A stretch of DNA of 64,000 bases from Candidatus Gottesmanbacteria bacterium (GTDB lineage Bacteria > Patescibacteriota > Microgenomatia > UBA10105 > UBA927). This document shows positions 3,999-64,000 of this stretch, piece after piece. Below the pieces are notes generated by a model, which saw only the letters and a list, made by a program, of their open reading frames with translations, was not told where the DNA came from and searched no databases. Location: contig JACREN010000044.1 of the NCBI GenBank assembly GCA_016218255.1, positions 2,489-66,488 of the forward strand, read 5' to 3'. A program made the position numbers and the translations under genes. Within the stretch, counting starts at the first letter, position 1; each line of letters starts with the position of its first letter.

Positions 3999-6116
3999 CT
4001 AAAACAGATCTTCTGGATCCCCTCCGTGATACGGAAATAAAAAGAATATTCTAAATCGTCCGATCACAAATGTACTCTTATTGGCAATACTTTGCAACGG
4101 ACGGCGCTCAGTCAGACGCATATCACCCTCCACCTGATATTTGTTATGCGTTCTGGGTCCTTGAAAAAGTCTCGCAGTAGGCCCTTCATAGAAAAGCTGA
4201 GTGCCATACGGCGGATAGTCGCCAAAAAAATATGGCAGACTGCCCCCAGCAATTGCATTATTTTTCACGATAATCTGATTTTCCTTTTCAAGAAAGGTTC
4301 CTTGTATCGGAATCGCCAACCATTCGCGGAAATTCGGCCACGCGGCTGCTTCTGCCAAAGCATCCTCAACTCCAGCATACCCGCCTAATCGTGGCAATGT
4401 CCGCTGCCACTGGCGCACAGCACGTAAATCGACAGGAGACATCCGCATCATCATTGGAACCCGATCAAACAACTCCTGACCATTTAGCATGACAGTCAAA
4501 AACTGGGTTGCGTTCGGATCCTGTATATCCATGATCAGATACCCATTCAAATCACGCAACCTAGATAACGCTTCGTTTCCCAGGGTAATTTCCTGATGTA
4601 TTTCCTCTCCTTGATTCAATGGTTTCCGCCATTCATGCCAATTCCTGCTTCGTATCTCTGGCGCTATGACAATGGAAATATAGACAATGAGAACACTTGG
4701 TAAAAGTTTCTTCGCCCAGTGATGTGCAATAATAAGCTTTGCGTTGCGATCAATCTTCCAAAGCATCCTCAACGCCCATACAACAATTACTCCTGAGACC
4801 AAAAAATTCACGATCCGCCACACGCGACTGTCAGAAATTAACGGGATTATCCGAAGCTCAATTCCGAGAATATACGGGCCTAATAAAATCCATGACAAGA
4901 AGAGTCCGCACAAACTCAACACCGATTTTCTTGCTGATTGATAATTCCAAAGAAACCGTAACTCCTCTATGCCCGCACCTGCCAACAGCAGTAAAATTCC
5001 CAATACGGGCATCTGATATCGAATTTCCTCCACATAATATAAAGACACGAATACCGTATTCCACAGAATCATTGAACTTATGAGAAGCATAAATCTATGA
5101 CGAAGGGCCGCCCTCGTACCCCACGCTGCCAAAAAAAGTATGCCCGCATGAAGCAGCTGAAGACTCCGCTGGTCCGCAAACGGAAAACTCGTCGCATATG
5201 AATTTGCAGCGTGCCGCCACAACCGGCTTACTCGTTCAAGCTCCAATATAAACAATGAAGCCATATTCTGACGCAATAGTAATCTGGAAAACATATCCAT
5301 CCATCCGGATACTTTGATACCATCCATCCACCATCCGTCTGTTGCCAGCGTATGAGCGTTCATGAATGTACTCGCTATACCGCCAACGCCATAAATACTT
5401 GTGCCGGTAAATGTAAGCATTGCGTTCCATGCAATGACCGGTATTGCGTACCCAGCAATCAGACCATATAGATTTTTTCGCTTGATAGTTCTGTCCATTA
5501 ATAATGGTAGACCGATAAAAAGCATCCCATAATAAGTAAAAACATGACGGATCAAACCCATAATAAATAAAATGAATCCGGCGCCAACGAACCAATAGAG
5601 ATGTTTTTTCCGTAATACAATCCAACTTATGGCAAATACGGTAAGCTGCAACGCTACACCCGTTATCTGTTCCGGCATCCACGAATAGATAAACGCGAAA
5701 AACGGCGTATAAAATGCTCCGACCAAGCCTACAGCAAGCGCAATCCATAGTGGGAACAGCTTCAAGGCGGTCAAAAATAATGCTGATACGAATCCCGCGT
5801 TCAAAATTGGAGCCACGTCGCGTGGTGTCCATTTGGCATTTTCCAGTACCGCAACGTATACGTTATAAAGCGGAGACCCATGCGTGTTTGCACCGGCAAA
5901 ATTATGCTTCAGCGCAGCTATGAATGCGGATTGTTCCTCTATCACAAGTGATCCCACGGCAATGCGCCAAAGGTTGTTTACGGCTATCGCGGCGAGTCGA
6001 TACTCCTTTGCATCTGAAGGTTCGTTATAATCTCCAGTCGCTACAAATTCCAGCCGCACCTGGTATGCAATCCAAAAAAGAAAAAGTGTTATTCCAAGGA
6101 TCAGTATTTTTTTCAT
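3999..6116 (-). CDS. GT-C-type glycosyltransferase, ArnT/PMT-like (GT39/GT83 superfamily)
   Basis: 705 aa with an N-terminal TM helix. The first loop carries an acidic motif 'SDAKEYRLAA' resembling the ArnT 'DExRYA' motif. It also has a 'HGSPLY' element, about 10 predicted TM helices and a C-terminal soluble domain of about 230 aa. Confidence 0.55.
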   Translation of the reverse strand: MKKILILGITLFLFWIAYQVRLEFVATGDYNEPSDAKEYRLAAIAVNNLWRIAVGSLVIEEQSAFIAALKHNFAGANTHGSPLYNVYVAVLENAKWTPRDVAPILNAGFVSALFLTALKLFPLWIALAVGLVGAFYTPFFAFIYSWMPEQITGVALQLTVFAISWIVLRKKHLYWFVGAGFILFIMGLIRHVFTYYGMLFIGLPLLMDRTIKRKNLYGLIAGYAIPVIAWNAMLTFTGTSIYGVGGIASTFMNAHTLATDGWWMDGIKVSGWMDMFSRLLLRQNMASLFILELERVSRLWRHAANSYATSFPFADQRSLQLLHAGILFLAAWGTRAALRHRFMLLISSMILWNTVFVSLYYVEEIRYQMPVLGILLLLAGAGIEELRFLWNYQSARKSVLSLCGLFLSWILLGPYILGIELRIIPLISDSRVWRIVNFLVSGVIVVWALRMLWKIDRNAKLIIAHHWAKKLLPSVLIVYISIVIAPEIRSRNWHEWRKPLNQGEEIHQEITLGNEALSRLRDLNGYLIMDIQDPNATQFLTVMLNGQELFDRVPMMMRMSPVDLRAVRQWQRTLPRLGGYAGVEDALAEAAAWPNFREWLAIPIQGTFLEKENQIIVKNNAIAGGSLPYFFGDYPPYGTQLFYEGPTARLFQGPRTHNKYQVEGDMRLTERRPLQSIANKSTFVIGRFRIFFLFPYHGGDPEDLF

Positions 6117-9055
6117 TGTATCCGCGCAGAATAAACTTCAAGGCTTGAAGGATTCGGAGAGCCGACAACGATAATCTTCCGTAAAATGCTGCCGCTGCAA
6201 TCTAATGCGGTCTGAACCGTTTGTCTTCCATGCTGAAGCGGAAATGAACGAAAGTGCCAAAGCCCCCCAATTAATGTCTTTTGGTTTTGATTCTGTTTAC
6301 TCCAGTCCGCATCCTCCGCGCACACCCAGGCAAGCAACATGGTTTTGTACCGAATAAGCGATGACAATGTTTCCTGTATCGAAAAATCGTTCACATAATG
6401 CCAATTGACCCCCGCAAGTTCAAATATCTTATCCGGAGAGTATTGTCTATTGCTAACCGGCTCAATAACGATCTCATCAAGCGATACAGGTGCGGAAGGA
6501 GTCTGCGTAATAACAATCTTCACCGAACGGTATATTCCAGGTATTACCGTCACCGCATGCATTCCGCCATTATTCGGGCTCCAAGAAATCTTTGTATCCT
6601 CACCTATGCGCCCTATCTTTACGTATGATTCTCCGTAACGCGATCCGTAGACTACGCCCTCTAGCGGCATGCGTTCACTTACCATATTTTTCGGTGTATT
6701 GAGCAATATTCTCCCCACATCTGTAGATTCCGCAAAAGAAAGTATTATCTCTATCGGCAAATTATTGTTTCCTAAATAAAATATTTCATCTGGAGCAGGT
6801 GATGGATCGGAAACAAATACTCCATCGATCAACGATTGCGCACGCACCCGCGCATCGGTTTCATCCAGGCCGGATACAGATGCCCGAATCCCCTGTCGAA
6901 TCAAATCAACCTTCTGGATAGCACGATTGATTTGTATCCGGTCATCCAAATTTATTTCTCCCAGTAGACGATCCTGAAAAGACAGCACAGTGAATGAAGA
7001 AAGGATTTCCTGGATGCTCCTTGCAGCTATCGGCGCGTATTCCTTTATCATCCACCAGAATTGTCCCGGTACGCGAGCTTCTTTTGGAATGATTACCGCA
7101 TCGGAAAATGGAAATTGAACATCCGGCAAAATATTCTGACCGAGAGAAATTTCCAACATCGTTGGCAGGAGCAATCTTTCCCCAATTTCACGGCTTGTAA
7201 GCATCGGGCGCTTTGCCAAATAGAGGGTTCCGTTCGTGTCTATTTTCGTAAATTCCGTCTCGGAAACGGCTTCTTCAAAGACGATGGGTACCGGTATAGA
7301 ATTCTCTTTTTCAAAGAAGATTCTTCTCGCCATCCCGGAAATATTCGCAAACACTGACGTCTCAGGATTAGCATAAAAAGCAAAAAACCTGTCCTTCGTA
7401 TATATGCCGGATTCTATAAGATTGCGGATCTCCCGGACATCATTGCTATAAAATAACTCATCCGTTCGATAAAATCCGTATAGCCACCGCCAGCCGGCAA
7501 CATTGACATCAAGTGCATTCCGGACGGGATTTACGGAATAGATAAGCTTCGGCTTTCCGTCGCGGGGAACCATAGCAAAAAATTTATCGATCAACGCCCT
7601 CTCTTTATTACTGATACCCTCAACTATGCCCCGATGACCCTGAATACTCACCATGCTATTCCCCATCAACACGACGAGAGTTACTATCCATCCGACACGA
7701 CCGAATACGATTCCTTTTTTGCCCCAAAGCCAATAAAGACCCACGCCAAACAGCGTACTCACGCCCACAGCGGCAGCAAAAACATATCTCGCTCCCGGGC
7801 CATACGGAGGTGTTATGCGGGAAAAATAAAACGGAAAAAACAATAAATCGCTTTTTGTAGTGATGTAAAGCGGGACGTAAAACATACTGCTCAAGATCAA
7901 TACGACAGAAAAAACAAGAATTTTCGTCACCCAATGCTGGTTTTTCAACCGAAACAACGCGAGAAAACCGATAATAATAAAGCCGATTAAGGACACCAAT
8001 CCGATCCCATATATCAAATACTGCTCAATAAATGGATTTAACACCAGACTTCCGATCCACATCCGCATGGATGGAAAAGCGCCAATAGCATTTGGCATCA
8101 CCAGTTGAGCCATATAATATGCCAAACGCTCGCTGTAGATATCCCATCGGAACGGAGACGCAACCACAACATTGCTCTTCTTCAATACTCCCTCAAGTAC
8201 TGCAGACCATCCGCCTGGAATAAGACGGATTCCGATAAATCCAAGCCACACCAATCCGATCCCAAAGCTCTCTCCCAGACGCATTATAATGCTGCGTTTC
8301 CGCTTTGCTGGCATCCAGAGGATCGCGAAAAGTCCGAACACCAAACCGGCAATCCGTACAAAACCCATTTTGACTGAAGCGATAAAAAATAGTAATGAAA
8401 GCAGATAATATATACTCGCGCGTTTTTGGGAGTAGCGATAAAGAAAAATAAATGAAAGTATATGAAGACCTAATACCAATGGCATACCCTGGGCATTAGC
8501 CTGCCATGAAAACACATCCAAAAATACCGGTGTAGTGGCAAAATACAATGAAGAAAGGAGTGCAATACTTTTTTTATTACTTATGACAAATACTAAAAAA
8601 TATAAACTCACAGCGGCAAAAATAAACCAAAAAAGAGAAACAATATTGTAGAACCACGCATTTGTACCGAACAAAAGATAAGAAAGTACAAATGACGCGA
8701 ATGGATAGCCGTTTATAATGTAATGGAACGGAAAACCTGCAGCGCCATTAGTAACGGGCGTTAATATAGAAGAGCTGTCTTCGGCAAAAAAATAGTAGCG
8801 GAGAATCAATCCGTGCGCGATAACACCTGCAGTCAGTAGTATTCCAATCTGGATCTTATGCTGAGAAATAGTTCTTGCTATCGGGCGAACGAGGTTGCTT
8901 TGCAATAAAAAAATAACGGCTATCACCATTGGCAACGATTGATCTATCACATAGCTCCACCCGACTCCGATTCGGGACTCAAGCCAAACGTAAAGTCCCG
9001 CATTAAAACTCATTATGCTGTAAAAAATTGCCGCAATAATCCACATTAGCGTCAT
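6113..9055 (-). CDS. Large polytopic membrane protein with a C-terminal extracytoplasmic domain of about 500 aa (GT-C-like, function unknown)
   Basis: 980 aa. The N-terminal ~480 aa are strongly hydrophobic with many helices; the C-terminal half is soluble. It has a 4-nt overlap with both flanking genes. Confidence 0.5.
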   Translation of the reverse strand: MTLMWIIAAIFYSIMSFNAGLYVWLESRIGVGWSYVIDQSLPMVIAVIFLLQSNLVRPIARTISQHKIQIGILLTAGVIAHGLILRYYFFAEDSSSILTPVTNGAAGFPFHYIINGYPFASFVLSYLLFGTNAWFYNIVSLFWFIFAAVSLYFLVFVISNKKSIALLSSLYFATTPVFLDVFSWQANAQGMPLVLGLHILSFIFLYRYSQKRASIYYLLSLLFFIASVKMGFVRIAGLVFGLFAILWMPAKRKRSIIMRLGESFGIGLVWLGFIGIRLIPGGWSAVLEGVLKKSNVVVASPFRWDIYSERLAYYMAQLVMPNAIGAFPSMRMWIGSLVLNPFIEQYLIYGIGLVSLIGFIIIGFLALFRLKNQHWVTKILVFSVVLILSSMFYVPLYITTKSDLLFFPFYFSRITPPYGPGARYVFAAAVGVSTLFGVGLYWLWGKKGIVFGRVGWIVTLVVLMGNSMVSIQGHRGIVEGISNKERALIDKFFAMVPRDGKPKLIYSVNPVRNALDVNVAGWRWLYGFYRTDELFYSNDVREIRNLIESGIYTKDRFFAFYANPETSVFANISGMARRIFFEKENSIPVPIVFEEAVSETEFTKIDTNGTLYLAKRPMLTSREIGERLLLPTMLEISLGQNILPDVQFPFSDAVIIPKEARVPGQFWWMIKEYAPIAARSIQEILSSFTVLSFQDRLLGEINLDDRIQINRAIQKVDLIRQGIRASVSGLDETDARVRAQSLIDGVFVSDPSPAPDEIFYLGNNNLPIEIILSFAESTDVGRILLNTPKNMVSERMPLEGVVYGSRYGESYVKIGRIGEDTKISWSPNNGGMHAVTVIPGIYRSVKIVITQTPSAPVSLDEIVIEPVSNRQYSPDKIFELAGVNWHYVNDFSIQETLSSLIRYKTMLLAWVCAEDADWSKQNQNQKTLIGGLWHFRSFPLQHGRQTVQTALDCSGSILRKIIVVGSPNPSSLEVYSARIQ

Positions 9056-10458
9056 TTATTTTTTGAGTATAATACCAAAGCATCCATACGCATCACTTCA
9101 CGGTAATTCTCTCTCATATACGCCAGAAACGGCCATGTGGAAAGCCCGCGGGGCAAATCCGGATGAGCCCAGTCAAACACAATAGCTGCTGGAGGGTTGC
9201 TAGTAAATACCTTCGTTGTTTCAACAAATGGCTCGAGAATAAACGGCGTAAAATTCGTATATTTATTTGCAGGAAGACGGTCAGACAACAAATAGATCAT
9301 CTCGCTCCCGTAGCTTATAATACGGTCTTGCTTATGCGTATTCTCATTTATCCAGACAGCCATTCTTTTTTCAAAATCCCCCCAGTCAGTCAAATATTGC
9401 TCACGGTGAAAACCGTTATCTCTAACAAAACCATTGTATGCACTCATATACCGTGATACCAACGTCATATATCCTATAAACCCGCACACAATGGATAAAC
9501 GGACCCAAGCAGTGTTCTTTTTATGCAACAAACCACGGATCAAATAACCGGCTGCGACGGAAACAAGAGCAAAACTGGTAAATGTCCGATAGGATAAGTA
9601 TGACGGCAACAAAGACGGAATAAGCGCGACAACAAAAAGTGTCAACAAAATAGCTGTCTTCCGTTGCATCCCCAATTGTTTCCATAAGAAAACACAAGGC
9701 AAAAGAAGAATGCCATATGCAAATTCGATATACAAACCGTCCCCGTGATCCAAAAGAGTGAAATTCCGGTATGGACCAACCACAGTATACAGAGAATAAT
9801 ACAGAAAATCGTACAGTGCTCCACGAAAGAAAAAGTATACCCCTATCAAAATAAACGGAACGGTCAACCCAAAGACATATACAAAGCTGCTCCTCATCAG
9901 ACGACTCATAGATTGCTTCCTAATATATAGATAGAATTGAAAAAACGGCAAGATTAAGACCACAAAAATGGTGTTTTGTTTGGTTGCGACAGTAAAGCCC
10001 GCACATATACCCGCTGCTAATGCCCAAACCGGCCGGTTTGTTAACGCATACTGATGAATCAAGAAAAACAGCAAAAGAACCAATAATCCCACCATTAGTT
10101 CGCCCACTTCCACATTGAGGAAGAGTGGAAACAGAAAGACCAAAAAAAATATACACGCCGGATATACTATCTTTCTGTCAATTCTCTTCAAAACCCACAG
10201 AAATATCGACACCAACAGGCCAAACATTACCCAAATAAATAACTGATACGCTGATCCGCTCGCGCCAAACAGTCTGTACCAAGCTGATAACAAAAACATA
10301 TCGAACGGCATACGAAGCCAAATGATATCCTTATACAGCGTTAATCCCTTTGTCATAAACCAGGGATAAATCACACCGGCAGTCCAAACGTGAAATGGAA
10401 GAAAATATATATTAGCAGTTATCCATAAAAGAGACACGAGATACAACATACCCGCCAT
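9052..10458 (-). CDS. Polytopic membrane protein, paralog of 13104..14486 (GT-C/GT87-like candidate)
   Basis: 468 aa. It shares with 13104..14486 an N-terminal 'ITANIYFLPFHVWT...LYKD' region and a TM 'TKQ(N/T)' element. The start codon is ATG at 10458. Confidence 0.5.
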   Translation of the reverse strand: MAGMLYLVSLLWITANIYFLPFHVWTAGVIYPWFMTKGLTLYKDIIWLRMPFDMFLLSAWYRLFGASGSAYQLFIWVMFGLLVSIFLWVLKRIDRKIVYPACIFFLVFLFPLFLNVEVGELMVGLLVLLLFFLIHQYALTNRPVWALAAGICAGFTVATKQNTIFVVLILPFFQFYLYIRKQSMSRLMRSSFVYVFGLTVPFILIGVYFFFRGALYDFLYYSLYTVVGPYRNFTLLDHGDGLYIEFAYGILLLPCVFLWKQLGMQRKTAILLTLFVVALIPSLLPSYLSYRTFTSFALVSVAAGYLIRGLLHKKNTAWVRLSIVCGFIGYMTLVSRYMSAYNGFVRDNGFHREQYLTDWGDFEKRMAVWINENTHKQDRIISYGSEMIYLLSDRLPANKYTNFTPFILEPFVETTKVFTSNPPAAIVFDWAHPDLPRGLSTWPFLAYMRENYREVMRMDALVLYSKNK

Positions 10459-11332: not shown

Positions 11333-12016
11333 TGAGGCGATCGTATAAGATATAAACATTGGAATGAATCTTGATTTGCTTTCTCCGTAAGGACGGTTAC
11401 GGTAATATACCGGAATTTCATAAAATGTGCCTCCCGCTTGTTTCACTTTTGTTATTAGCCGCATAAAATAATCTCCATACCCGGCAAATAATCCGGCATC
11501 CGAATTTCCGAGTGAAAGGATAAATTTCCGGTCAACACAAAAAAATCCGCTTAAAAAATCAGTAACAGGAAGATGGAATAACAGTCGAAGATATATATTA
11601 AAAAATCGGCTGAGCCAATACCGTCGCGAGTTCTCCATACCGCCACCGGTAATATACCGCGATCCAATAGCAAGTGTTGCTTTTCGACAAGCCTCACCAA
11701 GCTTCGGAATCACAGATGGATCATGGCTCAAGTCTGTATCCATTACCACGACCTGTTTACCCCTGGCTTTCTGAACACCAAACCATATTGCAGAAGCCAG
11801 TCCCCGCTCTTTTTTTCTGACGAAAACCCGAACTGAACGTTTTCCTCTAAACGCATGTTTACATACCACAGCAGTACCATCAGGACTGCTATCGTCGACA
11901 ACGATAGCTTCATATTTCGCTTTCGCAAACAATGCAGTACGAAAAATGCTCTTTATGAGTGGGATAATATTGCCTTTTTCGTTATAAGTTGGAAGAATAA
12001 CGGAAATATCGATCAT
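11294..12016 (-). CDS. Family-2 glycosyltransferase, DPM1-like polyprenol-phosphate sugar synthase (soluble form)
   Basis: 240 aa with motifs 'ISVILPTYNEKGNI', 'VVDDSSPDGT' and 'VMDTDLSHDP', which are DPM1/Ppm1-type. Its 3' end overlaps the formyltransferase 3' end convergently by 39 nt. Confidence 0.8.
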   Translation of the reverse strand: MIDISVILPTYNEKGNIIPLIKSIFRTALFAKAKYEAIVVDDSSPDGTAVVCKHAFRGKRSVRVFVRKKERGLASAIWFGVQKARGKQVVVMDTDLSHDPSVIPKLGEACRKATLAIGSRYITGGGMENSRRYWLSRFFNIYLRLLFHLPVTDFLSGFFCVDRKFILSLGNSDAGLFAGYGDYFMRLITKVKQAGGTFYEIPVYYRNRPYGESKSRFIPMFISYTIASLKLRGTDELPKR

Positions 12017-16173: not shown

Positions 16174-16180
16174 GTTTTGC

Positions 16181-16819: not shown

Positions 16820-16832
16820 CGAAGATGAAATA

Positions 16833-21799: not shown

Positions 21800-21864
21800 T
21801 CTGGTGCAATCATTATACCATCGGCGGTTGACGAAGCAGGAAAATCCCCGTATACTCAAACGAT

Positions 21865-56554: not shown

Positions 56555-57813
56555 GTTTCCTTTTCATCGAGATCTTTTAATATTCCCAAAGCGAATATGC
56601 TGGAAAGATATCCTACGTGACTGTTATTGAAATACCTGCTCGCCCACCACCAGACAAATAAAAACGCACCATATCCGATTAACAATCGGGACATTGTCCC
56701 TCGCTTCCAAAGTGCTCCTAGGCTAACGCCAAGTACCGGTATTGCCAGCACAATCTGCCAAACAAAAAAAGGATAGTATGCATGTATATCCCGGACAACA
56801 CCGGCCTCTCGAAGCACCATGCCCAACCCATACCCGGAGACAGGATAGGAAAATGCCGAACCTCCGCTTAAATATAAAATCGTACTTTCAACGAAAGCAC
56901 GATAATCCCACAAAAGAAACGGGCCAGCCAACACAAAAAGAACACCCGTTGCCGGTACTGCGATCTTGACAAAAAACGGCGTAATTTTCTTTAGCGATAT
57001 CCACGCATATATGCCATAAAAAGGAAGTGCCAGCCACACCGTCTGTTTTGACAGGATAGCCAAACTGAATAACAACGAAGACCAGACATACCGTTTCTTT
57101 TCTAGCGAATAGAGCGAACACATGAGCCAGAAAAGGGCAAATATATCGCTCCTGCCTTCAATAAGATAATCAACAGTTGCCGGCGACAACGCAGTTAAAG
57201 CAACGGCAATGAACGCGATTGACTTATTCCTGAACCAAAAAAGCAAAAGTGCTAAAACACCAAACGCGCTGAAAAGAAGCTGCATCCGTCCGTCAAAAAA
57301 TCCAAATAGGGGTATGGCTACCGCATAAAACGGCAATGCAGACAACAAATACCACGGCGGCATGACAAAATGGTAAAGTGCCGGGTTTACGGCTTCTTTA
57401 CCTTCTTCTGCATAATGCCAGCTTTCCAAAGGTGTTCCAAAATATGTTTCCTTATACGGATTTTTGCCCGAAATGAGATACCGCATTGCTGCTTCCTGCT
57501 GGAGGATAATATCGTGCACCCCGTATACCGGAGCAGTTTTGCTCCGGTCCACCATAGCCGTCACCATCGTACCGCCCAATACGATCATAACCGTCACAAT
57601 AAGCAAGACCAGTTTTATCTTTAGTACCCGTATTTCTTTTCCGATAAACCCGGGATACATAGAAATGAGAACATTTATAAGAAGCACGAAAAATAATATG
57701 CCGAATAACCAATATGGTGTACCCGTAACCGGAAAAATTCTATACCGCATCACCACCGGCACCGAGAGAGAGAAAAGAAGCAGCGCGTCCAATGCCAGAA
57801 GATTCATATGCAC
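56551..57813 (-). CDS. Polytopic membrane protein, GT87/DUF2029-like GT-C candidate
   Basis: 420 aa with 'VHDIILQQEAAMRYLISGKNPY' and 'LAILSKQTVWLALPFY'. Confidence 0.45.
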   Translation of the reverse strand: MHMNLLALDALLLFSLSVPVVMRYRIFPVTGTPYWLFGILFFVLLINVLISMYPGFIGKEIRVLKIKLVLLIVTVMIVLGGTMVTAMVDRSKTAPVYGVHDIILQQEAAMRYLISGKNPYKETYFGTPLESWHYAEEGKEAVNPALYHFVMPPWYLLSALPFYAVAIPLFGFFDGRMQLLFSAFGVLALLLFWFRNKSIAFIAVALTALSPATVDYLIEGRSDIFALFWLMCSLYSLEKKRYVWSSLLFSLAILSKQTVWLALPFYGIYAWISLKKITPFFVKIAVPATGVLFVLAGPFLLWDYRAFVESTILYLSGGSAFSYPVSGYGLGMVLREAGVVRDIHAYYPFFVWQIVLAIPVLGVSLGALWKRGTMSRLLIGYGAFLFVWWWASRYFNNSHVGYLSSIFALGILKDLDEKET

Positions 57814-59297
57814 TATCGATTGTACACGTAGATGCGAGCATTTTCCACGTCTGACGTTTTATCTAATTGCCAACCGGTTAGATCCAATACCGGATGTTCA
57901 CCGCCGCAAAATCGTTTGAAGCAAACAATGTCAAGTCTCGTTTTCTCCTTCATATCCGACTCACCTGGACATATTTCTGATTCGCAGACCAAAAATAATC
58001 GCCGGTAATTCGGGTCGCTCATTATCACGGGCTCATTGTGCCGCCATAGGAAGAAATACCGGTAGTGCAAATCAGAAAATGATCGGGATGCAAACAACGC
58101 AAATGAATACGGTGTAGCACCGGACTCATCTCGTATAACGTCAACGACATGGCCAATGCGGGATATATCCCGGGGTCCAGCAGTAAATACATCTGTCTGG
58201 TGGATACTCCAAACAAACAATACTATCGAGATGATAATCAAACCTTTTTTAGGGATAGCCGATTCAAGCGCTTGAAGTACACCACCCATAAATACAAACG
58301 GCAAGGGAAGCATAAAATGCAGATAATGGTCAAATACCGTCCCCTTATATAGGGATATAGCGGCGATGCCGCCGACATACCATACTCCCCAAAAAAATGA
58401 CCAAAACGATCGCTTCCAAAACAGAGCAACGACGGCAAACAATTGAATTGCTATCAGCATATTACGGCTGACGCCAGGAATCATCGTTCCAAATAATCGA
58501 CTCGAGTAATCAATCATCTGTTCCCACATCGGAGCTACAGTAGCCGCCCCGTTTCCACCAGAAGTCAGCATGGTAAAAGCGATTTCCCTCACATCCGCCC
58601 ATGCATGGCTCATTTCATAGACAAAAAACGGCGTAAGCACGCCGAAAAAGCCAATCACACCTCCCACTGCTCCCAGAGCAAGCGGCCAAATACGGCAGCG
58701 CTTGTTTAATGCCATGGCAAGAATCAAAATCAAACTTAACCCGACAAAGATGACATTGGGGTAATGAAGCTGTACTAGAATTCCTACGACTATTCCCAAA
58801 GGCAACAACGAAAACGGAAACTGTTTCTCGTAGGCACGGTAAGCCAGATAAAGGAAAAAAATTACAAAGAGAGGCACTATGGTGGGTTCCCAAAGCGTCC
58901 GGTCAGCTCGAACGATAGACGGAGAAACTGCATACAGCCCGGCTACTGCAATTCCTATCCAGGATCCATACAGTATGGATGCAAACCGGTACAATAATAA
59001 AACAGCTAGAATCCCAAGCATCGCCATAAAAATGCTTGGAATGATGGGATGAAAACCCCCGAAGACAAACGGCAGCCCGATAATATAGTAAAAGGCCGGA
59101 CCCAAAAATTGTCCCGTAAGGACTGGTGGTCCAACTAAGGGCAATTGCCGGACTTTCCAAGCTTCATAAATGATCATTCCCGTCCGGCCTTGATCACCCA
59201 GGAACTCCGTTAAGTCGTTTATACGCCACAGGCGAAAAAACCCCGCAAAGACAAGAAGCACCAATATAAAAACCTTGGTATAATGAACCTTGCTCAT
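57813..59297 (-). CDS. Polytopic membrane protein, PMT_2-like GT-C candidate
   Basis: 494 aa with 'FLGDQGRTGMIIYEAWKVRQLPLVGPPVLTG'. The ATG at 59297 shares a CATG palindrome with the divergent gene start. Confidence 0.4.
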   Translation of the reverse strand: MSKVHYTKVFILVLLVFAGFFRLWRINDLTEFLGDQGRTGMIIYEAWKVRQLPLVGPPVLTGQFLGPAFYYIIGLPFVFGGFHPIIPSIFMAMLGILAVLLLYRFASILYGSWIGIAVAGLYAVSPSIVRADRTLWEPTIVPLFVIFFLYLAYRAYEKQFPFSLLPLGIVVGILVQLHYPNVIFVGLSLILILAMALNKRCRIWPLALGAVGGVIGFFGVLTPFFVYEMSHAWADVREIAFTMLTSGGNGAATVAPMWEQMIDYSSRLFGTMIPGVSRNMLIAIQLFAVVALFWKRSFWSFFWGVWYVGGIAAISLYKGTVFDHYLHFMLPLPFVFMGGVLQALESAIPKKGLIIISIVLFVWSIHQTDVFTAGPRDISRIGHVVDVIRDESGATPYSFALFASRSFSDLHYRYFFLWRHNEPVIMSDPNYRRLFLVCESEICPGESDMKEKTRLDIVCFKRFCGGEHPVLDLTGWQLDKTSDVENARIYVYNR

Positions 59298-60915
59298 GAA
59301 ATCATTTAAACATTATCTTCTCATACTTGCAATTTCTGTTCTTCCGGTCGCAACCGTATTTTTTACTCCTGACCTACCACATACCCATGATGGACCTGTA
59401 CATTTAGCACGAATGGCAGCGTATTACAAGGCACTTACTGCCGGACAAATTTTTCCTCGCTGGGCAAGCGACCTCAATTACGGCTATGGCATGCCGCTGT
59501 TTAATTTTATCTATCAATTGCCGTACCTGATAGCGTCAGTGTTTCTTTTTCTGAACACCAGCCTTGTGTTGTCTTTTAAATACACACTGGCACTGAGTTA
59601 TTTACTTTCCGGTATATTTATGTTTGCTTTTGCCAAAGCGTTCTGGAAAGATGATAAAAAGGCGCTATTGGTCGCACTTTTTTATCAATTCGCGCCGTTC
59701 CGGTTGGTTGAACTTTTTGTACGCGGAAGCTTTGGAGAGATTTATACATACGCACTGCTTCCGCTTGTCCTCTTGGGCCTCACACAAATCCGAGCATATT
59801 TTATCCTCACAAGTGTGGCTTCAGCGCTTCTTATCATCTCGCATAATTCCATGAGTTTGATTTTTTTCGGCGTTTGCGTACTTTTTGTGTTCTTTTTTGC
59901 AAAAACTGCCAAACTACGAGCGCTTTCCTTTATTGCCTTAATCTGCGGCCTTCTTCTTTCTGCCTGGTATTGGCTTCCTGCGATCATGGAACACCGATAC
60001 ACGTACGGCGATCTTTTCATGAAGGATATGTACCGGGACCATTTCGCTCCAATTTGGCAATTTATATTACCCAATTTCATAAATAGCCCGTTACTCCAAA
60101 CCGGCGGTGTAAGCGTTCAATGGGGCATCTTCCACATCGGTGCCGTGTTCCTTTCGCTCGTATTCATTGTTCGAAATAAGCTGTCCGCCTCGGAAAAAAC
60201 TGTAGCGATTTTTTCTCTTATACTTACCACTGGGTCGCTGTTTTTTATGCTATACCCGTCGATATATTTCTGGAAAACTATTCCAATCCTTCGCCAATTT
60301 CAATTTCCCTGGAGGCTTGTCGGACTTGCAGGCTTTACCACGTCATTACTTTCCGTTTATTACCTATCACTCCCAATTTTCCATAAAACGAAGGCCTTCA
60401 CACTGCTACTCACCCTTGTTGTACTATCGACTTCATATTATTGGCTGCCTCCATTAGGTTTTGATCAAGTACGGGATGAGTCTCAATATTGGAATTATCC
60501 CCTGAACACCACATATTTCGGCGAAACAGACGTCATCTGGTCAGCAGGTCCCGCAAAGGCATACCCAAAAGAGCGTGTTGAGGTAGCAGAGGGAAAAGCA
60601 GTTATCTCCGCTTTTACCCAAAAATCTATCGTCCAAACACTCCAAGTCAACGCAACAACCAATGCGACTCTCGTATCACATACTCAATATTTTCCGGGGT
60701 GGCGGGTATTTGTAGATAACAACAAGGTACCCATTCAATTTCAAAACGCCAATTGGAGAGGCCTCATCACCTTCCCCGTTCCGACGGGCCAGCACACCAT
60801 ACACATAAAACTCGGAAAAACCAAAGTACAATTTATTTCGGAAATTCTCTCGCTGTCAACGCTCATACTCATGACGGGAGTTGTATTATGGAGAAGGGTA
60901 GGACGCACGACATGA
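59290..60915 (+). CDS. Polytopic membrane protein of the 'HDG' family, paralog (plus strand)
   Basis: 541 aa with 'PHTHDGPVHLARMAAY...RWASDLNYGYGMPLFNFIYQLPYLI'. The ORF track start is a TTG; the ATG is at 59296. Confidence 0.5.
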   Translation: MLMKSFKHYLLILAISVLPVATVFFTPDLPHTHDGPVHLARMAAYYKALTAGQIFPRWASDLNYGYGMPLFNFIYQLPYLIASVFLFLNTSLVLSFKYTLALSYLLSGIFMFAFAKAFWKDDKKALLVALFYQFAPFRLVELFVRGSFGEIYTYALLPLVLLGLTQIRAYFILTSVASALLIISHNSMSLIFFGVCVLFVFFFAKTAKLRALSFIALICGLLLSAWYWLPAIMEHRYTYGDLFMKDMYRDHFAPIWQFILPNFINSPLLQTGGVSVQWGIFHIGAVFLSLVFIVRNKLSASEKTVAIFSLILTTGSLFFMLYPSIYFWKTIPILRQFQFPWRLVGLAGFTTSLLSVYYLSLPIFHKTKAFTLLLTLVVLSTSYYWLPPLGFDQVRDESQYWNYPLNTTYFGETDVIWSAGPAKAYPKERVEVAEGKAVISAFTQKSIVQTLQVNATTNATLVSHTQYFPGWRVFVDNNKVPIQFQNANWRGLITFPVPTGQHTIHIKLGKTKVQFISEILSLSTLILMTGVVLWRRVGRTT

Positions 60916-63230
60916 AACGCTTTTTCCCATTGTTTGTGTTGCTAGCGATTGTAGCAATCTTTTTTTATAAAACGTTTCTTTATGGTCTCATACCGTTCCC
61001 CGGTGATTTATTGCTTGCGGAATATAAACCGTGGCAATCCTATTCTTTTGCCGGATACGTTCCAGGCTCTATTCCAAACAAAGCACAGTACCCCGACACA
61101 ATCCGGCAATTATATCCATGGCGGACGCTCGCAACAAATGAACTAAGGTCCGGAAGAATGCCCCTGTGGAATCCATATAATTTCTCCGGTACCCCGCTTT
61201 TGGCAAATTTTCAATCCGCAGCATTTTATCCGCCCAACATTCTCTATGTTGTATTTCCCCAAACTGTGGCCTGGAGCATGCTAGTTATCCTGCAACCCTT
61301 ACTCTCTCTCCTGTTCACGTATTGGTATATTAGAAAAATTGACGCTTCGCTACTGGCCGCAATACTTGCAGGCATTTCCTATGCATTTTCTCTATTTGCC
61401 ATTGTATGGCTACAATATAATTCCATCGGGCATGTCATGATTTGGTTACCGCTCATGCTTCTTGCTATCGAATCGCTCAAGCGTCAGCGCACACGATCCT
61501 GGTTTGCACTACTTGTAGCCGCTGAAGCAAGTGCGCTTCTTGCCGGCCATCCACAACTTGGAGGCTATCTGCTTTTATTCGTTCTTGCATATACTTTTTT
61601 TCTGGCGAGGCCATTGATCAAAAACGTTACACTGTCTATGCTGTTTGCATTGGGAATCGCTGCTATCCAACTCATACCCGGTATGGAGCTCGTCTGGTAC
61701 GCCGCCAGAAGTTCACATGAATTTTCCCTTATCTTTCAGAAAATACTTATCCAACCGCAGCAACTATTCATGACAATTATCCCAAATCTTTTTGGCCACC
61801 CTGCAACACGCACCTATTGGCCGCAAGACACTTTTATCGGCAAAGTCACCTATGTCGGTCTCGTCCCGCTCTTTTTCCTTTTGGCAGCATTCCGGATTAA
61901 ATCGCGACACATAAAATTTTTCGGGATCTCTAGTCTCATTGTTCTGGTTCTAGTAACTGCCAATCCGATCACCTTTATCCTCTACAAATTTAATCTCCCA
62001 CTATTTTCCTCAAGCAGTCCGACGCTTATGGAATTTCTGCTTGCTTTTTCACTTGCCGTCATAACGTCTTTAGGCTTAGATGGGTGGATACAAGAAAAAC
62101 ACTCCATCGGCAAACTCGCCCATCGGTCCCTGAGCGTCATTATTTTCTTCATCATCATATGGTTAGGCTTCCGGTCTATTGAACACTCCCGCACTGCCAT
62201 GAATGCAATTCTTTATTCAGGCGTACTGGCAACAATTATACTCTCCGGATTTTTCATAGCAATAACGCGTAAAAAATTTATGATTCCTGTCGTACTACTT
62301 CTTATAGCACTGCATACAACGGATCTCTTTATCCAATTTCAAAAATTCAATCCTTTTGTTCCTGCGTCTTTTGTTTTCCCCCAAACCTCAATAATCCAGT
62401 ATCTTAAAGAGCATGCAGGTAACAATCGTTTTTGGGGTTATGGCACCGCAAGTATCCAGACAAATATAGCAACCCAATATCAGATCTATTCAACCGATGG
62501 ATACGACCCACTCTATCCAAAATGGTATGGTGAACTTCTCAATGCTTCAAAAAACGGCCAAATACTCAAAAAATTTACGAACGATACAAGGTCTGATGCA
62601 ATTTTAGCGCAGGGCTTTGGAGAATTTGACCTGCCAAATAATCAATACCGCTTACGCATGCTTGACGCACTTAGTGTGAAATATATACTCGACAGACCCG
62701 AGAATGGCAGCACTCAAAATACACTGCCGCAAGATCGTTTTCAGCCTGTTGCAGATATTGATGGATGGAAAGTATATGAAAATCTTAAAGCCGCTCCACG
62801 CGCATTTTTGGTTTCCGACTTTGCTACGTACGCCTCACCCAAAGAATTCGAAGACCATTTTTTCTCTAAAGAATTTAACCCTTCAACGGCTATCTTGTTA
62901 GAAAAACCGATCAATGAACGTCTTGGACAAATCAACGGCACATCCGTACAAATCAAAAAATATCAACCAAATGAAGTATCACTCGATCTTGTTTCCAACG
63001 GAAATCTGCTCTATCTTTCCGATACCTATTATCCTGGATGGAAAGCATTCATAGATGAAGCAAATACACCCATCCTGAAAGCAAACTATGCCTTCAGGGC
63101 AATATACGTACCCCGGGGCGCACACACAGTTCGCTTTATATTTGATCCACTATCTTTCAAAATTGGGCTCGTCGTCAGCGTGATAAGTTTGGCTGCTTCA
63201 ATTATATTCCTAAAGAAATATGAAGCATAA
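60912..63230 (+). CDS. YfhO-like GT-C-type large membrane protein
   Basis: 'GDLLLAEYKPW...LWNPYNFSGTPLLANFQSAAFYPPNIL' resembles the YfhO-family N-terminal region. It has many TM helices and a C-terminal soluble domain. The ORF track start is at 60753. The ATG at 60912 ('MKRFFPLFVLL') gives an ATGA overlap with the preceding gene. Confidence 0.5.
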   Translation: MKRFFPLFVLLAIVAIFFYKTFLYGLIPFPGDLLLAEYKPWQSYSFAGYVPGSIPNKAQYPDTIRQLYPWRTLATNELRSGRMPLWNPYNFSGTPLLANFQSAAFYPPNILYVVFPQTVAWSMLVILQPLLSLLFTYWYIRKIDASLLAAILAGISYAFSLFAIVWLQYNSIGHVMIWLPLMLLAIESLKRQRTRSWFALLVAAEASALLAGHPQLGGYLLLFVLAYTFFLARPLIKNVTLSMLFALGIAAIQLIPGMELVWYAARSSHEFSLIFQKILIQPQQLFMTIIPNLFGHPATRTYWPQDTFIGKVTYVGLVPLFFLLAAFRIKSRHIKFFGISSLIVLVLVTANPITFILYKFNLPLFSSSSPTLMEFLLAFSLAVITSLGLDGWIQEKHSIGKLAHRSLSVIIFFIIIWLGFRSIEHSRTAMNAILYSGVLATIILSGFFIAITRKKFMIPVVLLLIALHTTDLFIQFQKFNPFVPASFVFPQTSIIQYLKEHAGNNRFWGYGTASIQTNIATQYQIYSTDGYDPLYPKWYGELLNASKNGQILKKFTNDTRSDAILAQGFGEFDLPNNQYRLRMLDALSVKYILDRPENGSTQNTLPQDRFQPVADIDGWKVYENLKAAPRAFLVSDFATYASPKEFEDHFFSKEFNPSTAILLEKPINERLGQINGTSVQIKKYQPNEVSLDLVSNGNLLYLSDTYYPGWKAFIDEANTPILKANYAFRAIYVPRGAHTVRFIFDPLSFKIGLVVSVISLAASIIFLKKYEA

Positions 63231-64000
63231 ACAAGTATTTCTTCTTGTACTGATCATTTTCCTGGCCGCTTTCCTTCGCCTCTTTCGAGTGAACGAAATC
63301 CCCCCAGGAGTCAATCGGGATGAAGCATCTATAGGATTTACTGCGTATTCTCTCATGCAAACCGGCAACGATGAATACGGAAAACCATTTCCGCTGTCTT
63401 TCCAGTCATTCGGGGACTGGAAACTACCTCTCTATATCTACACAACAATCCCGTTCGTCAAGCTATTCGGCCTAAATGAGCTTGCCGTGCGGTTGCCATC
63501 CGTTATTGCAGGAACGCTTACCGTGTTTCTGACATATTTTTTAGTAAAGGAGCTTTGTAAAGCTTACAACCGTTATATTGCGCTTCTAAGCGCACTTCTT
63601 CTCGCTATATCGCCTTGGCATATTCATCTTTCCCGAGTCGAATCAGAATCCAATGTTGCAGTTTTCCTCACGGTAAGCGCCTTACTTCTTTTCCTTAAGG
63701 GCCTAAAGAATACACCCGTACTCCTTGGGCTCAGTTTCCCAATCTTTGCTCTTACCTACTATACCTATCACGGCAACCATGTATTTACCACACTCCTTCT
63801 TATTAGTCTTTGTGCTATATACCACAAAGATATCCCTCGAAAGCTGCCTGTTTTTGTTGGCGCAATTTTGAGTGTCGTTCTTATAGTATTTATCCTGTCT
63901 CAAACTCTGCTTGGAGCTGACAAAACAAAAATTTCCGGCATAAGCATATTTGGGAGTCCAAATGTCATTCATGAAAATATTGAGCTCCCTCGCAACCGTT
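63220..64000 (+). CDS. ArnT/PMT-family GT-C glycosyltransferase (5' part; runs off the window)
   Basis: ATG at 63220. The product begins 'MKHKQVFLLVLIIFLAAFLRLFRVNEIPPGVNRDEASIGFTAYSLMQTGNDEYGKPFPL...AVRLPSVIAGTLTVFLTYF', collinear with the three paralogs at 50719..56554. It is not in the ORF track because it is open-ended. Confidence 0.65.
   Translation, partial: MKHKQVFLLVLIIFLAAFLRLFRVNEIPPGVNRDEASIGFTAYSLMQTGNDEYGKPFPLSFQSFGDWKLPLYIYTTIPFVKLFGLNELAVRLPSVIAGTLTVFLTYFLVKELCKAYNRYIALLSALLLAISPWHIHLSRVESESNVAVFLTVSALLLFLKGLKNTPVLLGLSFPIFALTYYTYHGNHVFTTLLLISLCAIYHKDIPRKLPVFVGAILSVVLIVFILSQTLLGADKTKISGISIFGSPNVIHENIELPRNR

Follow-up and report, generated by a model that had tools for sequence, protein, structure and literature searches.

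A single locus in an uncultured CPR bacterium with a small genome encodes 21 polytopic GT-C-type membrane proteins together with donor-sugar enzymes, all within a window of 64 kb (the whole stretch of DNA that was analysed). The array points to an elaborate, so far undescribed cell-surface glycan that would be assembled outside the membrane. The contig, 68 kb long and largely covered by the window, belongs to a MAG of Candidatus Gottesmanbacteria (CPR, Microgenomates).

Locus organization

All 21 genes singled out in the initial annotation were open reading frames, and all encoded polytopic membrane proteins, with at least five and usually 8–15 hydrophobic segments each, as revealed by Kyte-Doolittle analysis (Table 1; genes are named here by their first coordinate). 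Their summed length was 33.8 kb, or 53% of the window, lower than the ~36 kb of coding sequence estimated initially. Eighteen were found on the minus strand and the last three on the plus strand. Overlaps of 4 nt between start and stop codons joined most genes, indicating an operon structure. Four of the starts were probably over-extended, the likely ones being 52245 for 50719, 60912 for 60753, 35352 for 33352 and 59296 for 59290. The 21 proteins fell into ~11 sequence families, several of them without Pfam coverage.

Table 1 Features of the 64 kb window, with the matches or gene content on which each assignment is based.
Feature	Position	Strand	Evidence or content
NDP-amino-deoxyhexose cassette	222..3998	-	DegT aminotransferase, GT2 (1346), 4,6-dehydratase/epimerase, sugar-1-P nucleotidyltransferase; adjoins GT-Cs 3999 and 6113
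GT2, candidate polyprenyl-phosphate sugar synthase (PgfS/ArnC-like)	1346..2374	-	NCBIfam PgfS E 3.5e-66, ArnC E 2.4e-31, full length; two C-terminal TM segments at 260-322
Putative GT-C, rare family (705 aa)	3999..6116	-	TM domain and C-terminal soluble domain of ~220 aa
Probable GT-C (980 aa)	6113..9055	-	Large C-terminal extracytoplasmic domain, CBM32/discoidin-like
GT-C family A, 13104 paralog	9052..10458	-	BLASTP 31% identity, E 3e-72, full length; hhalign 100%
arn-like donor cassette	10499..13107	mixed	Flanked by GT-Cs 9052 and 13104
Formyltransferase	10499-11332	+	Formyl_trans_N; ArnA formyltransferase domain E 1.2e-32
GT2 of arn-like cassette	11294..12016	-	Pfam Glycos_transf_2; NCBIfam PgfS and ArnC ~1e-14
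DegT aminotransferase	12013-13107	-	DegT E 9e-125
GT-C, PMT_2 (family A)	13104..14486	-	Pfam PMT_2 35 bits (gathering score 26.1)
Sugar tailoring and cytoplasmic GT block	14489..21859	-	Two methyltransferases, GH130-like, UDP-GlcNAc 2-epimerase, CapD-like dehydratase, GT4, epimerase, GT2
GT2, candidate ArnC/GtrB-like polyprenyl-phosphate sugar synthase	22465..23415	+	NCBIfam ArnC E 1.6e-49 over 7-294 of 316; PgfS, AglJ; C-terminal TM segments at 234-296
GT-C, PMT_2 (family B, 683 aa)	23336..25387	-	Pfam PMT_2 42.9 bits; WDDPAH after TM1
Glycan modification and diNAc-sugar block	25354..33355	.	TM-anchored GDSL/SGNH acylhydrolase, carbamoyltransferase, cupin (129 codons), 4,6-dehydratase, DegT, hexapeptide acetyltransferase, 2-epimerase
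GT-C, PMT_2 (family B, 681 aa)	33352..35397	-	Pfam PMT_2 50 bits; 37% identity to 23336
GT4 glycosyltransferase, cytoplasmic	35349..36413	-	
GT2, PpgS/ArnC-like	36420..37280	-	
Wzx-type (MOP) flippase	37174..38430	-	8 of 10 orthologs match Polysacc_synt_3 or Polysacc_synt, best 3e-19
Short GT2, DPMS/AglJ/PpgS-like	38435..39118	-	NCBIfam AglJ 2.2e-31, PpgS 3.9e-19, dolichyl-P hexose transferase 1.5e-17; conserved across syntenic loci
GT-C, PMT_2 (367 aa)	39123..40226	-	Pfam PMT_2 31.9 bits; orthologs in syntenic loci
GT4 glycosyltransferase, cytoplasmic	40189..41229	-	Conserved in syntenic loci
GT-C, YfhO/PTPS_related-like (family C)	41213..42790	-	BLASTP to 49127 E 3e-71, to 59290 E 1e-58; hhalign to 60753 YfhO family 99.4%
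Probable GT-C (414 aa)	42795..44039	-	hhalign; weakest case of the 21
GT-C, Dpy19/DUF2298-like (537 aa)	44036..45649	-	OST-like C-terminal globular domain
GT-C, PIG-M/GT87-like (family E)	45627..46745	-	BLASTP to 56551 2.5e-6; hhalign 96.7%; family HMM vs 56551 family 1e-9 to 1e-10
GT-C, PMT_2-like (372 aa)	46742..47860	-	hhalign to family D 91-95%
TM-anchored DUF5667 protein	47857-48372	-	Inside array; orthologs in 38/80 loci
GT2	48369-49130	-	Inside array; orthologs in 61/80 loci
GT-C, YfhO + PTPS_related (family C)	49127..50722	-	YfhO 36.4, PTPS_related 32.7 bits, both above gathering scores
GT-C, PMT_2-type (family D)	50719..52353	-	BLASTP to 53313 36% identity, E 4e-90; DEASIGYNAYS
NAD-dependent sugar epimerase/dehydratase between GT-Cs	52242..53306	-	NCBIfam GalE-like and dTDP-glucose dehydratase-like matches
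GT-C, PMT_2 (family D)	53313..54935	-	Pfam PMT_2 53.4 bits
GT-C, PMT_2 + PMT (family D)	54932..56554	-	Pfam PMT_2 45.5 bits, PMT 32 bits
GT-C, PIG-M/GT50-like (family E)	56551..57813	-	Family profile vs GPI mannosyltransferase 1 (23gx_B) E 5.9e-5; weak matches to ALG3 and AZOBR_p60025
GT-C, PMT_2 (494 aa)	57813..59297	-	Pfam PMT_2 27.3 bits (gathering score 26.1); hhalign to 54932 99.2%
GT-C, YfhO-like (family C)	59290..60915	+	BLASTP to 49127 33%, E 6e-80; hhalign to 60753 family 99.6%
GT-C, YfhO	60753..63230	+	Pfam YfhO 88.3 bits, E 5.8e-25
GT-C, PMT_2-type (family D)	63220..64000	+	41-42% identity to 53313, 54932 and 50719, E down to 5e-54; ORF cut by window end at 64000

Identity of the GT-C proteins

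The reading of these proteins as GT-Cs was supported: 19 of the 21 could be connected by sequence, profile or structure to known GT-C families (PMT_2/PMT, YfhO/PTPS_related, Dpy19/DUF2298, PIG-M and STT3), and none scored as a transporter or permease. Nine were above the Pfam gathering score for PMT_2, PMT, YfhO or PTPS_related, and five more (9052, 41213, 50719, 59290 and 63220) were clear paralogs of these nine. For 6113 and 42795, the only matches were profile-profile ones (hhalign 92–95% to PMT_2-type profiles), which make them probable GT-Cs. The Wzx flippase family served as a negative control and reached at most 1.4% against the same GT-C profiles. The structure of 44036 was modelled confidently by AlphaFold. 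Its best PDB matches were all GT-C enzymes, with resemblance to DPY19 and STT3 and further matches to AftA, AftD and AftB.

Each of the 21 proteins has a TM helix at its N-terminus, and the loop behind it bears an acidic residue, in line with the architecture described initially. Where family alignments exist, the acidic residue of this first loop was invariant (D35/E36 in family D; D63, in an IPDET motif, in the 46742 family; D101, in SYDIFNY, in the 45627 family; H100/D101 in the 56551 family; D45 in the 44036 family; D29/E32/D35 in the 3999 family; D34/D58 in the 42795 family; H30/D31, with an invariant THDG motif, in family C) or, in the 6113 family, nearly so (D38). Many of the proteins had been called ArnT/PMT-like with a DE element. 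Pfam PMT or PMT_2 matches were found, as was a DE-type motif in loop 1 of family D; other GT-C types (YfhO, PIG-M, Dpy19) were also present.

Donor synthesis and export

Sugar-pathway genes in the window encode three DegT aminotransferases, dehydratases, 2-epimerases, and formyl-, acetyl-, carbamoyl- and methyltransferases. The presence of lipid-sugar synthases, also proposed initially, was upheld. Both 1346 and 22465 aligned end to end with PgfS and ArnC and had C-terminal TM segments, and 38435, 36420 and 11294 resemble AglJ, PpgS and DPMS-type enzymes. All GT2 matches to ArnC, PgfS and the like were below the NCBIfam equivalog cut-offs, so they do not define the donor specificity of these candidate synthases.

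A 22nd polytopic protein, missing from the initial list, was the Wzx-type flippase 37174, which is not a GT-C (hhalign to GT-C families ≤1.4%). An initiating phosphoglycosyltransferase, a Wzy polymerase, a WaaL or LCP ligase and a GtrA-type small flippase were not found in the window, and thus the pathway is either incomplete here or uses unrecognised parts.

Conservation across Microgenomates

The gene order of the right half (~35–64 kb) was kept across Microgenomates, in loci of Gottesman-, Levy- and Woesebacteria. The recurring order was 60753, 59290, 57813, 56551, 54932, 53313, (52242), 50719 and 49127, followed by 48369, 47857, (46742), 45627, 41213, 40189, 39123, 38435 and 37174. The 80 comparison loci, picked via a family D gene with 10 kb on each side and therefore blind to an absence of the left half, had a median of eight GT-C-like ORFs per ~21 kb locus. 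A genome scan revealed at least 581 relatives of 53313, and those with informative titles were Microgenomates. The array is a lineage trait of Microgenomates and not peculiar to this Gottesmanbacteria genome. From the left half, the 3999/6113 cassette recurred in another MAG, beside a different sugar pathway. The idea of a combinatorial glycosylation machinery is speculation; relatives keep the gene order of the right half, which speaks rather for a fixed assembly line in that part.

Proposed function and comparison with known systems

We consider it highly likely that the window represents one very large envelope-glycan biosynthesis locus. Most likely, its products assemble or decorate an envelope glycan, or surface proteins, one step at a time on the extracytoplasmic side, drawing on polyprenyl-phosphate sugars. 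We infer the donor lipids, order of action, acceptor and core/decoration split as follows. Cytoplasmic enzymes would produce unusual nucleotide sugars (amino, N-acetyl and N-formyl deoxyhexoses, and HexNAc derivatives), possibly carbamoylated or methylated, and the ArnC/GtrB/PgfS/DPMS-like GT2s would charge polyprenyl phosphate with single sugars. A lipid-linked oligosaccharide is probably made by the GT4s and other GT2s and would be exported by the Wzx flippase. On the outer face of the membrane, each of the 21 GT-Cs would add one defined sugar from a polyprenyl-phosphate donor to the growing acceptor, for which a wall-associated glycopolymer and surface proteins are candidates, alone or together. 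The right half would form the conserved assembly line common to Microgenomates, and the rarer modular cassettes of the left half (donor pathway, GT2 and GT-C, in the manner of arn) probably provide lineage-specific decorations.

The array could instead be mainly a protein glycosylation machine, a possible but doubtful reading, in which PMT-, Dpy19- and STT3-like GT-Cs would not build a polymer but O-, C- or N-glycosylate secreted proteins (e.g. pilins, S-layer proteins or Ser/Thr-rich regions), with streptococcal Pgf/GtrB systems or actinobacterial Pmt as models. Protein 54932 matched the PMT family itself, 44036 was DPY19/STT3-like with its OST-like domain, 1346 had its closest counterpart in PgfS, encoded in the protein-glycosylation operon of S. 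mutans, and GT-C-dependent O-glycosylation of membrane proteins is documented in Gram-positives (PMC11092751). However, more than 20 distinct GT-Cs far exceed the needs of any known such system, Wzx, GT4 and GT2 genes together with pathways for many rare sugars are seen more typically in polysaccharide loci, and two small DUF5667 proteins were the only candidate acceptors in the window. The eukaryotic and actinobacterial PMT (GT39) enzymes share the Pfam matches and the DE-type motif with this locus, and DPY19 and STT3 share the fold of 44036, but MIR domains were absent here, the 44036 family consensus had no WWDxG-type OST motif, and identity to solved enzymes was 8–14%. A PDB profile search with family D gave nothing at E ≤1.

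The GT-Cs might also work in separate three-component systems of GT2, flippase and GT-C, each of which decorates a pre-existing, e.g. teichoic-acid-like, polymer with one side-chain sugar. Such systems would yield variable or combinatorial surface patterns, possibly for phage evasion or host recognition; this reading, too, is possible but doubtful. Well-established precedents for three-component glycosylation are YfhO with CsbB and the streptococcal GtrB systems, and GtrA/GtrB/GtrC, CsbB/GtcA/YfhO and PgfS/PgfM show the same pairing of a GT2 polyprenyl-phosphate synthase with an external GT-C (PMC5836110, PMC7389260, PMC11092751). In Bacillus and Listeria, such decoration is precisely the role of YfhO-type enzymes (PMC5836110, PMC7389260), of which the window has four. 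GT2 and GT-C genes adjoin in the pairs 48369/49127, 38435/39123, 22465/23336, 11294/13104 and 1346/3999, and the 3999 and 6113 families are rare and have another donor pathway beside them in the second MAG. In contrast, different candidate phyla of the Microgenomates have kept both the gene content and the gene order of the right-half array, so a fixed pathway fits better than variable decorations. Only ~5–8 GT2s accompany the 21 GT-Cs, where the known systems have one or two GT-Cs, and the window lacks a GtrA/GtcA-type flippase. It also has many more GT-C families, several of them not in Pfam, plus cytoplasmic GT4 and GT2 enzymes and Wzx.

For the stepwise assembly of an envelope glycan, mycobacterial arabinogalactan/LM/LAM is, to our knowledge, the only well-known bacterial case of many GT-Cs acting in sequence outside the membrane. 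There, EmbA/B/C, AftA-D, MptA/B, PimE and Pmt use polyprenyl-phosphate sugars to make a complex glycan of the wall, and the roughly 15–20 GT-C genes are scattered over the 4.4 Mb genome. Here, 21 are found within 60 kb, in another phylum with another envelope; DPA pathway genes (UbiA, DprE1/2) were not seen in the window, and the sequence relationship is not close. The likeness lies in the Aft matches of the 44036 model and in family E, which resembles PimE and PIG-M.

The cassette at 9052-14486 follows the logic of the Arn (PmrHFIJKLM) pathway for L-Ara4N on lipid A, with DegT as ArnB-like, GT2 as ArnC-like, the formyltransferase as ArnA N-domain-like and the PMT_2 GT-C as ArnT-like counterparts. 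However, the matches fell below equivalog cut-offs, and the locus lacks the ArnA decarboxylase domain, the ArnD deformylase and the ArnE/F flippase. The sugar probably differs from that of Arn and is another amino-deoxyhexose. Lipid A is unlikely as the acceptor, since an outer membrane is proposed to be absent from CPR bacteria (PMC6744442).

Divergent GT-C families

Direct Pfam or NCBIfam matches were absent for 3999, and only six homologs were detected among 5.8 billion clusters. An exhaustive HMM search revealed 190 distant relatives. Ten were scanned, of which four matched PMT_2 (three above the gathering score) and one STT3, in each case within the part that corresponds to query residues 85–250; through these relatives 3999 can be linked to the GT-Cs. 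The TGDYNEPSD motif after TM1 was invariant in its family, and its AF2 model was poor (pLDDT 43). Only 12 homologs of 6113 were detected, and these share contigs with homologs of 3999. No direct Pfam or PDB GT-C match was found for 6113. Its family profile matched the 57813 PMT_2 family (hhalign 95.4%, E 1.7e-8) and the YfhO family (91.7%), its weak top hmmsearch matches were all ORFs about as long as family D proteins (~540 aa), and two of 11 orthologs had a C-terminal F5_F8_type_C match. Neither 42795 nor its 25 orthologs had a Pfam or PDB sequence match; its family profile matched the 54932 PMT/PMT_2 family (91.8%, E 7e-7, 242 columns).

That many of 3999, 6113, 42795, 45627 and 46742 share merely a hydrophobic composition with GT-Cs, and are instead other envelope proteins such as polymerases, ligases, transporters or scaffolds, is improbable: all five lacked direct Pfam or NCBIfam matches, their profiles had no PDB sequence matches and the 3999 model failed, but 4 of 11 orthologs of 46742 matched Pfam PMT_2 (best 9.4e-10), remote 3999 relatives matched PMT_2 or STT3, 45627 is tied to the PIG-M-like 56551, the hhalign matches lay in the equivalent N-terminal core region, the Wzx control reached at most 1.4%, and the first-loop Asp was invariant or nearly so.

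Immediately beyond the left end of the window, the contig carries a further 3999-like paralog (P0006, HY948_04615); a GNAT acetyltransferase gene also follows the 222..3998 cassette on this contig.

Organization of the gene array

Each of the 21 polytopic genes proposed in the initial annotation proved to be an ORF; the minus strand encodes 18 of them and the plus strand the other three. The translations were strongly hydrophobic, and hydropathy scans showed several TM segments in all 21, in keeping with the multi-pass architecture claimed for them. GT-C enzymes typically span the membrane 8-13 or more times. Together the genes occupy 53% of the window (33.8 kb): a large share of it, as proposed, but lower than the ~36 kb first estimated. 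Four longest-ORF starts were probably over-extended, and the likelier starts are given in the table.

Most adjacent genes in the window have a 4-nt stop/start overlap, as expected of a single long operon-like train. The minus-strand train runs from position 59297 down to 222, interrupted by three short plus-strand islands. Database proteins identical to those of the window carry the annotation Candidatus Gottesmanbacteria bacterium and the locus tags HY948_04645 to HY948_04825, on a contig of 67,819 bp. An assembly or paralog artefact was rejected, as the ORFs are intact, paralog identity is only 30-42% and gene order is kept in independent MAGs.

To the left of the window, the contig (comparison locus L081, 7156-8597) encodes a GNAT acetyltransferase and the membrane protein P0006 (HY948_04615), a paralog of 3999 with 46% identity. 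Because P0006 lies beyond window position 1, the array continues past the window.

Features of the window, named by their lower coordinate, with GT-C paralog families A to E; Pfam names mark matches above the gathering score.
Gene	Strand	Family	Assignment
1346			GT2
3999	minus		GT-C
6113-9055	minus		candidate GT-C
9052	minus	A	paralog of 13104; arn-like set
10499			ArnA-like formyltransferase (ArnA formyltransferase domain, E 1.2e-32); arn-like set
11294			GT2; arn-like set
12013			DegT aminotransferase; arn-like set
13104	minus	A	PMT_2; arn-like set
15262-16173	minus		GH130-like protein
19003			GT4
21865-22449	plus		small TM-anchored DUF5667 protein
22465			GT2
23336	minus	B	PMT_2
25354-29273	plus		island: TM-anchored GDSL/SGNH acylhydrolase (589 aa) and NodU/CmcH-type carbamoyltransferase (593 aa)
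29262-29648			soluble cupin
33352	minus	B	PMT_2; probable start 35352
35349			GT4
36420			GT2
37174-38430	minus		divergent Wzx/MOP flippase; 22nd polytopic protein, absent from the initial list
38435			GT2
39123	minus		PMT_2
40189			GT4
41213	minus	C	paralog of 49127
42795	minus		candidate GT-C
44036	minus		GT-C
45627	minus	E	GT-C
46742	minus		GT-C
47857-48372	minus		small TM-anchored DUF5667 protein
49127	minus	C	YfhO; PTPS_related
50719	minus	D	paralog of 53313/54932; probable start 52245
53313	minus	D	PMT_2
54932	minus	D	PMT_2 and PMT
56551	minus	E	GT-C
57813	minus		PMT_2
59290-60915	plus	C	paralog of 49127; probable start 59296
60753-63230	plus		YfhO; probable start 60912
63220-end	plus	D	paralog of 53313/54932

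GT-C identity of the polytopic proteins

BLASTP comparison gave about 11 families for the 21 proteins: five groups of paralogs plus six singletons. Homology to GT-C families, by sequence, by profile or, for 44036, by model, was found for 19 of them. Nine scored above Pfam gathering thresholds and five more were assigned by unambiguous paralogy (table). Another five (56551, 45627, 46742, 3999 and 44036) were assigned by other routes, namely orthologs, remote relatives, a PDB profile search or, for 44036, a model. Direct Pfam and NCBIfam scans gave no match for 3999, 6113, 9052, 42795, 45627, 46742, 50719 and 59290. PDB sequence-profile searches gave no GT-C match for the profiles of 45627, 46742, 3999, 44036, 6113, 42795, family D and family C. 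The only profile with such a match was that of the 56551 family (24 sequences), which hit GPI mannosyltransferase I (PIG-M) with an E value of 5.9e-5. Protein 45627 is a paralog of 56551 (BLASTP 2.5e-6, hhalign 96.7%, family HMM ~1e-9), and four of 11 orthologs of 46742 matched PMT_2 directly (best 9.4e-10).

The 3999 family is tiny, with six clusters among 5.8 billion, and its AlphaFold2 model was unusable (pLDDT 43, from a 6-sequence alignment). An exhaustive HMM search yielded 190 remote relatives; among ten scanned, PMT_2 was matched in four and STT3 in one, at the equivalent N-terminal region.

For 44036, 261 homologs were found, some with precomputed Dpy19 or DUF2298 matches. Its AlphaFold2 model (27-sequence alignment; pLDDT 87, pTM 0.89) was a multi-helix TM bundle, and the best 27 Foldseek PDB matches were all GT-C enzymes (DPY19, STT3, AftA, ArnT, PglB, AftD, PimE, Pmt1, AftB). 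The C-terminal globular domain has a fold like those of AglB and PglB. Oligosaccharyltransferases of the STT3/PglB/AglB type carry WWDxG in this domain, but the 44036 family consensus lacks a motif of this type, and we rejected this identity.

The evidence for 6113 and 42795 is of the profile-profile kind only (hhalign). The 6113 profile matched those of the 57813 family (PMT_2; 95.4%) and of the YfhO family (91.7%), and the 42795 profile matched that of the 54932 family (91.8%). As a negative control, 37174 and its Wzx flippase relatives reached at most 1.4% against the same GT-C profiles, which argues that these matches reflect more than shared hydrophobic composition. The C-terminal half of 6113 contains a soluble region of ~500 residues with a discoidin/CBM32-like signal (F5_F8_type_C in two of 11 orthologs; weak PDB matches to GH89 CBM and FN3 regions), which suggests that a carbohydrate-binding module has been joined to the membrane part of the protein.

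The acidic residue reported after TM1 was present as an invariant Asp/Glu (nearly so in 6113) in every family alignment made, that is for families C and D and for 3999, 6113, 42795, 44036, 45627, 46742 and 56551; in families A and B and in 39123 it was seen in the window sequences only. A transporter or permease identity was rejected, since no such family matched any of the 21 proteins; the lone MOP-type protein is 37174. From family membership and the adjacent ArnC/GtrB-like GT2 genes we infer that the 21 GT-Cs would use polyprenyl-(di)phosphate-linked sugar donors.

Gene order in related genomes

Using the family D alignment and one genome per species, at least 581 relatives were detected. 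In an exact-sequence look-up, 53313 itself matched no record. The best 80 loci, picked via the family D gene with 10 kb on each side, came from Gottesman-, Levy-, Woese-, Curtissbacteria and other Microgenomates. In them, the right-half (~35-64 kb) gene order was kept: 60753, 59290, 57813, 56551, 54932, 53313, 52242, 50719, 49127, 48369, 47857, 46742, 45627, 41213, 40189, 39123, 38435, 37174. The related loci, each of ~21 kb, held a median of eight GT-C-like ORFs (range 2-12). Given the family D selection and the 10-kb flanks, these loci speak to the right half of the window and are silent on the left.

Both the 3999 family and the 6113 family are very rare, and their members share contigs. 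The cassette of 13104, 9052, 6113, 3999, nucleotidyltransferase and dehydratase is found again in another MAG, where the genes that follow belong to another sugar pathway; this suggests that the left cassette is exchanged as a module. In another MAG (L121, 13892-18322), the 3999/6113 orthologs are flanked by genes for a DHQ-synthase-like protein and a TPP-dependent enzyme, suggesting that the same GT-C pair is coupled there to a sugar pathway of another kind, branched-chain or carbocyclic.

Many of the related MAG records (loci L002, L003, L006, L009 and others; TPA_asm binchicken assemblies) bear the title 'uncultured Gammaproteobacteria bacterium'. They hold the same Microgenomates-type array with 55-63% identity, so the titles look like mislabels.

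Donor supply and accessory genes

The remaining window genes suit a role in donor supply and glycan assembly. The GT2s 1346 and 22465 are similar to PgfS and ArnC over their full length, and both bear TM segments at the C-terminus. Similarity to AglJ, PpgS and dolichyl-P-hexose synthases was seen for 38435, 36420 and 11294. None of these GT2 matches reached the NCBIfam equivalog cut-offs. Besides these and three GT4s, the window encodes further GT2s, three DegT aminotransferases, CapD/PglF-like and other 4,6-dehydratases and epimerases, two UDP-GlcNAc 2-epimerase homologs, two methyltransferases, a TM-anchored GDSL/SGNH protein, a GH130-like protein, and one each of a sugar nucleotidyltransferase, a hexapeptide acetyltransferase and a carbamoyltransferase. 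The window copy of 37174 had no Pfam match; its assignment as a Wzx-type flippase comes from eight of ten orthologs, which matched Polysacc_synt_3.

The GH130-like protein 15262, similar to beta-1,2-mannobiose phosphorylase and GINT1_N, is encoded amid biosynthetic genes and may be a phosphorylase-type or GT108-like transferase, not a hydrolase. The acylhydrolase and carbamoyltransferase of the 25354-29273 island suggest that the glycan is O-acetylated and carbamoylated. Of the two DUF5667 proteins, which may serve as accessory factors or as acceptors, 47857 keeps its place inside the array in 38 of the 80 loci.

Comparison with known systems

The logic proposed for the window repeats, many times over, that of three-component glycosylation by Gtr and CsbB-YfhO systems (PMC5836110, PMC7389260, PMC11092751) and that of arn. 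Two Gtr/CsbB-YfhO components have counterparts here: the GT2 synthase with C-terminal TM helices (candidates 1346 and 22465) and the YfhO-type GT-C (60753 and 49127, plus the paralogs 41213 and 59290). The small GtrA/GtcA flippase was not found within the window, a provisional result based on the tight gene packing, which leaves as sole unassigned ORF the one encoding the soluble cupin.

The 9052-14486 block shares with ArnBCADTEF the combination of aminotransferase, GT2, formyltransferase and PMT_2 GT-C. However, Arn also has the ArnA C-terminal UDP-GlcA decarboxylase, the ArnD deformylase and the ArnE/F flippase, none of which appeared in the Pfam/NCBIfam results for the window. The block works like arn and is no member of the Arn pathway. 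With Wzx/Wzy-dependent loci the window shares Wzx (37174); an initiating phosphoglycosyltransferase, Wzy and a ligase were not found among the window genes (no Bac_transf, MraY/WecA or Wzy matches). Genes for the initiating phosphoglycosyltransferase and Wzy may lie elsewhere in the genome.

Proposed function and significance

An envelope-glycan locus is the best-supported reading of the window. GT2 enzymes would load single sugars, some of them unusual, onto polyprenyl phosphate; GT4 and GT2 enzymes may assemble a lipid-linked oligosaccharide, to be flipped by Wzx. The GT-Cs would then attach sugars singly on the outside of the membrane, to a polymer, to surface proteins or to both. Protein glycosylation and independent side-chain decoration are both live alternatives for the function of the locus.

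Extending the envelope-glycan reading, we tentatively propose, as a possibility that we rate below an even chance, that Microgenomates share a conserved, operon-encoded line of at least ten different GT-Cs. Working almost wholly outside the membrane, it would use polyprenyl-phosphate sugars to build a complex, lineage-defining surface glycopolymer, and would independently parallel mycobacterial arabinogalactan/LAM. The line would include at least four GT-C families absent from Pfam/CAZy (3999, 6113, 42795 and 45627 types), and in single lineages rare swap-in cassettes (donor pathway, GT2 and GT-C) would add to it and make the surface more diverse. If so, such diversification could matter for host attachment.

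With genomes of about 1 Mb and a sparse metabolism, CPR bacteria are thought to be host-attached, and their envelope chemistry has scarcely been described. Here, a single contig holds 21-22 GT-C genes (~34 kb), more than the whole M. tuberculosis genome, and a comparable scale is otherwise known only from mycobacterial arabinogalactan and LAM assembly. Such an investment implies an elaborate extracytoplasmic glycan central to CPR biology.

The GT-C superfamily is already known, and the mechanism extends known systems; what is unusual is the GT-C density, the conservation across Microgenomates and the several GT-C families without Pfam coverage. The initial annotation had not recognised a described system, and we likewise found no such CPR array in the open-access full text searched (CPR/Patescibacteria/Microgenomates/Gottesmanbacteria literature). 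One Microgenomates genome paper simply counted 29 glycosyltransferase genes (PMC7143001). Méheust et al. listed 35 Microgenomates-enriched families, mostly hypothetical, 14 of them predicted membrane proteins (PMC6744442), and the array may account for some of these 'hypothetical membrane protein' families. The locus offers new candidate GT-C families for structural and biochemical work, predicts rare amino, formyl and carbamoyl sugars, and has in its conserved core array a possible Microgenomates marker.

Divergent starts and strand composition

At 59294-59299, the start codons of 57813 (minus) and 59290 (plus) appear to overlap within the palindrome TCATGA, which leaves no room for an intergenic promoter; alternatively, the true starts lie further downstream. 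The same back-to-back start overlap was seen in locus L004.

Plus-strand GC skew was negative throughout the window (-0.09 to -0.18) and AT skew mostly positive, in agreement with its almost uniform minus-strand coding. Strong compositional disparity between strands has been reported from a complete Microgenomates genome (PMC7143001).
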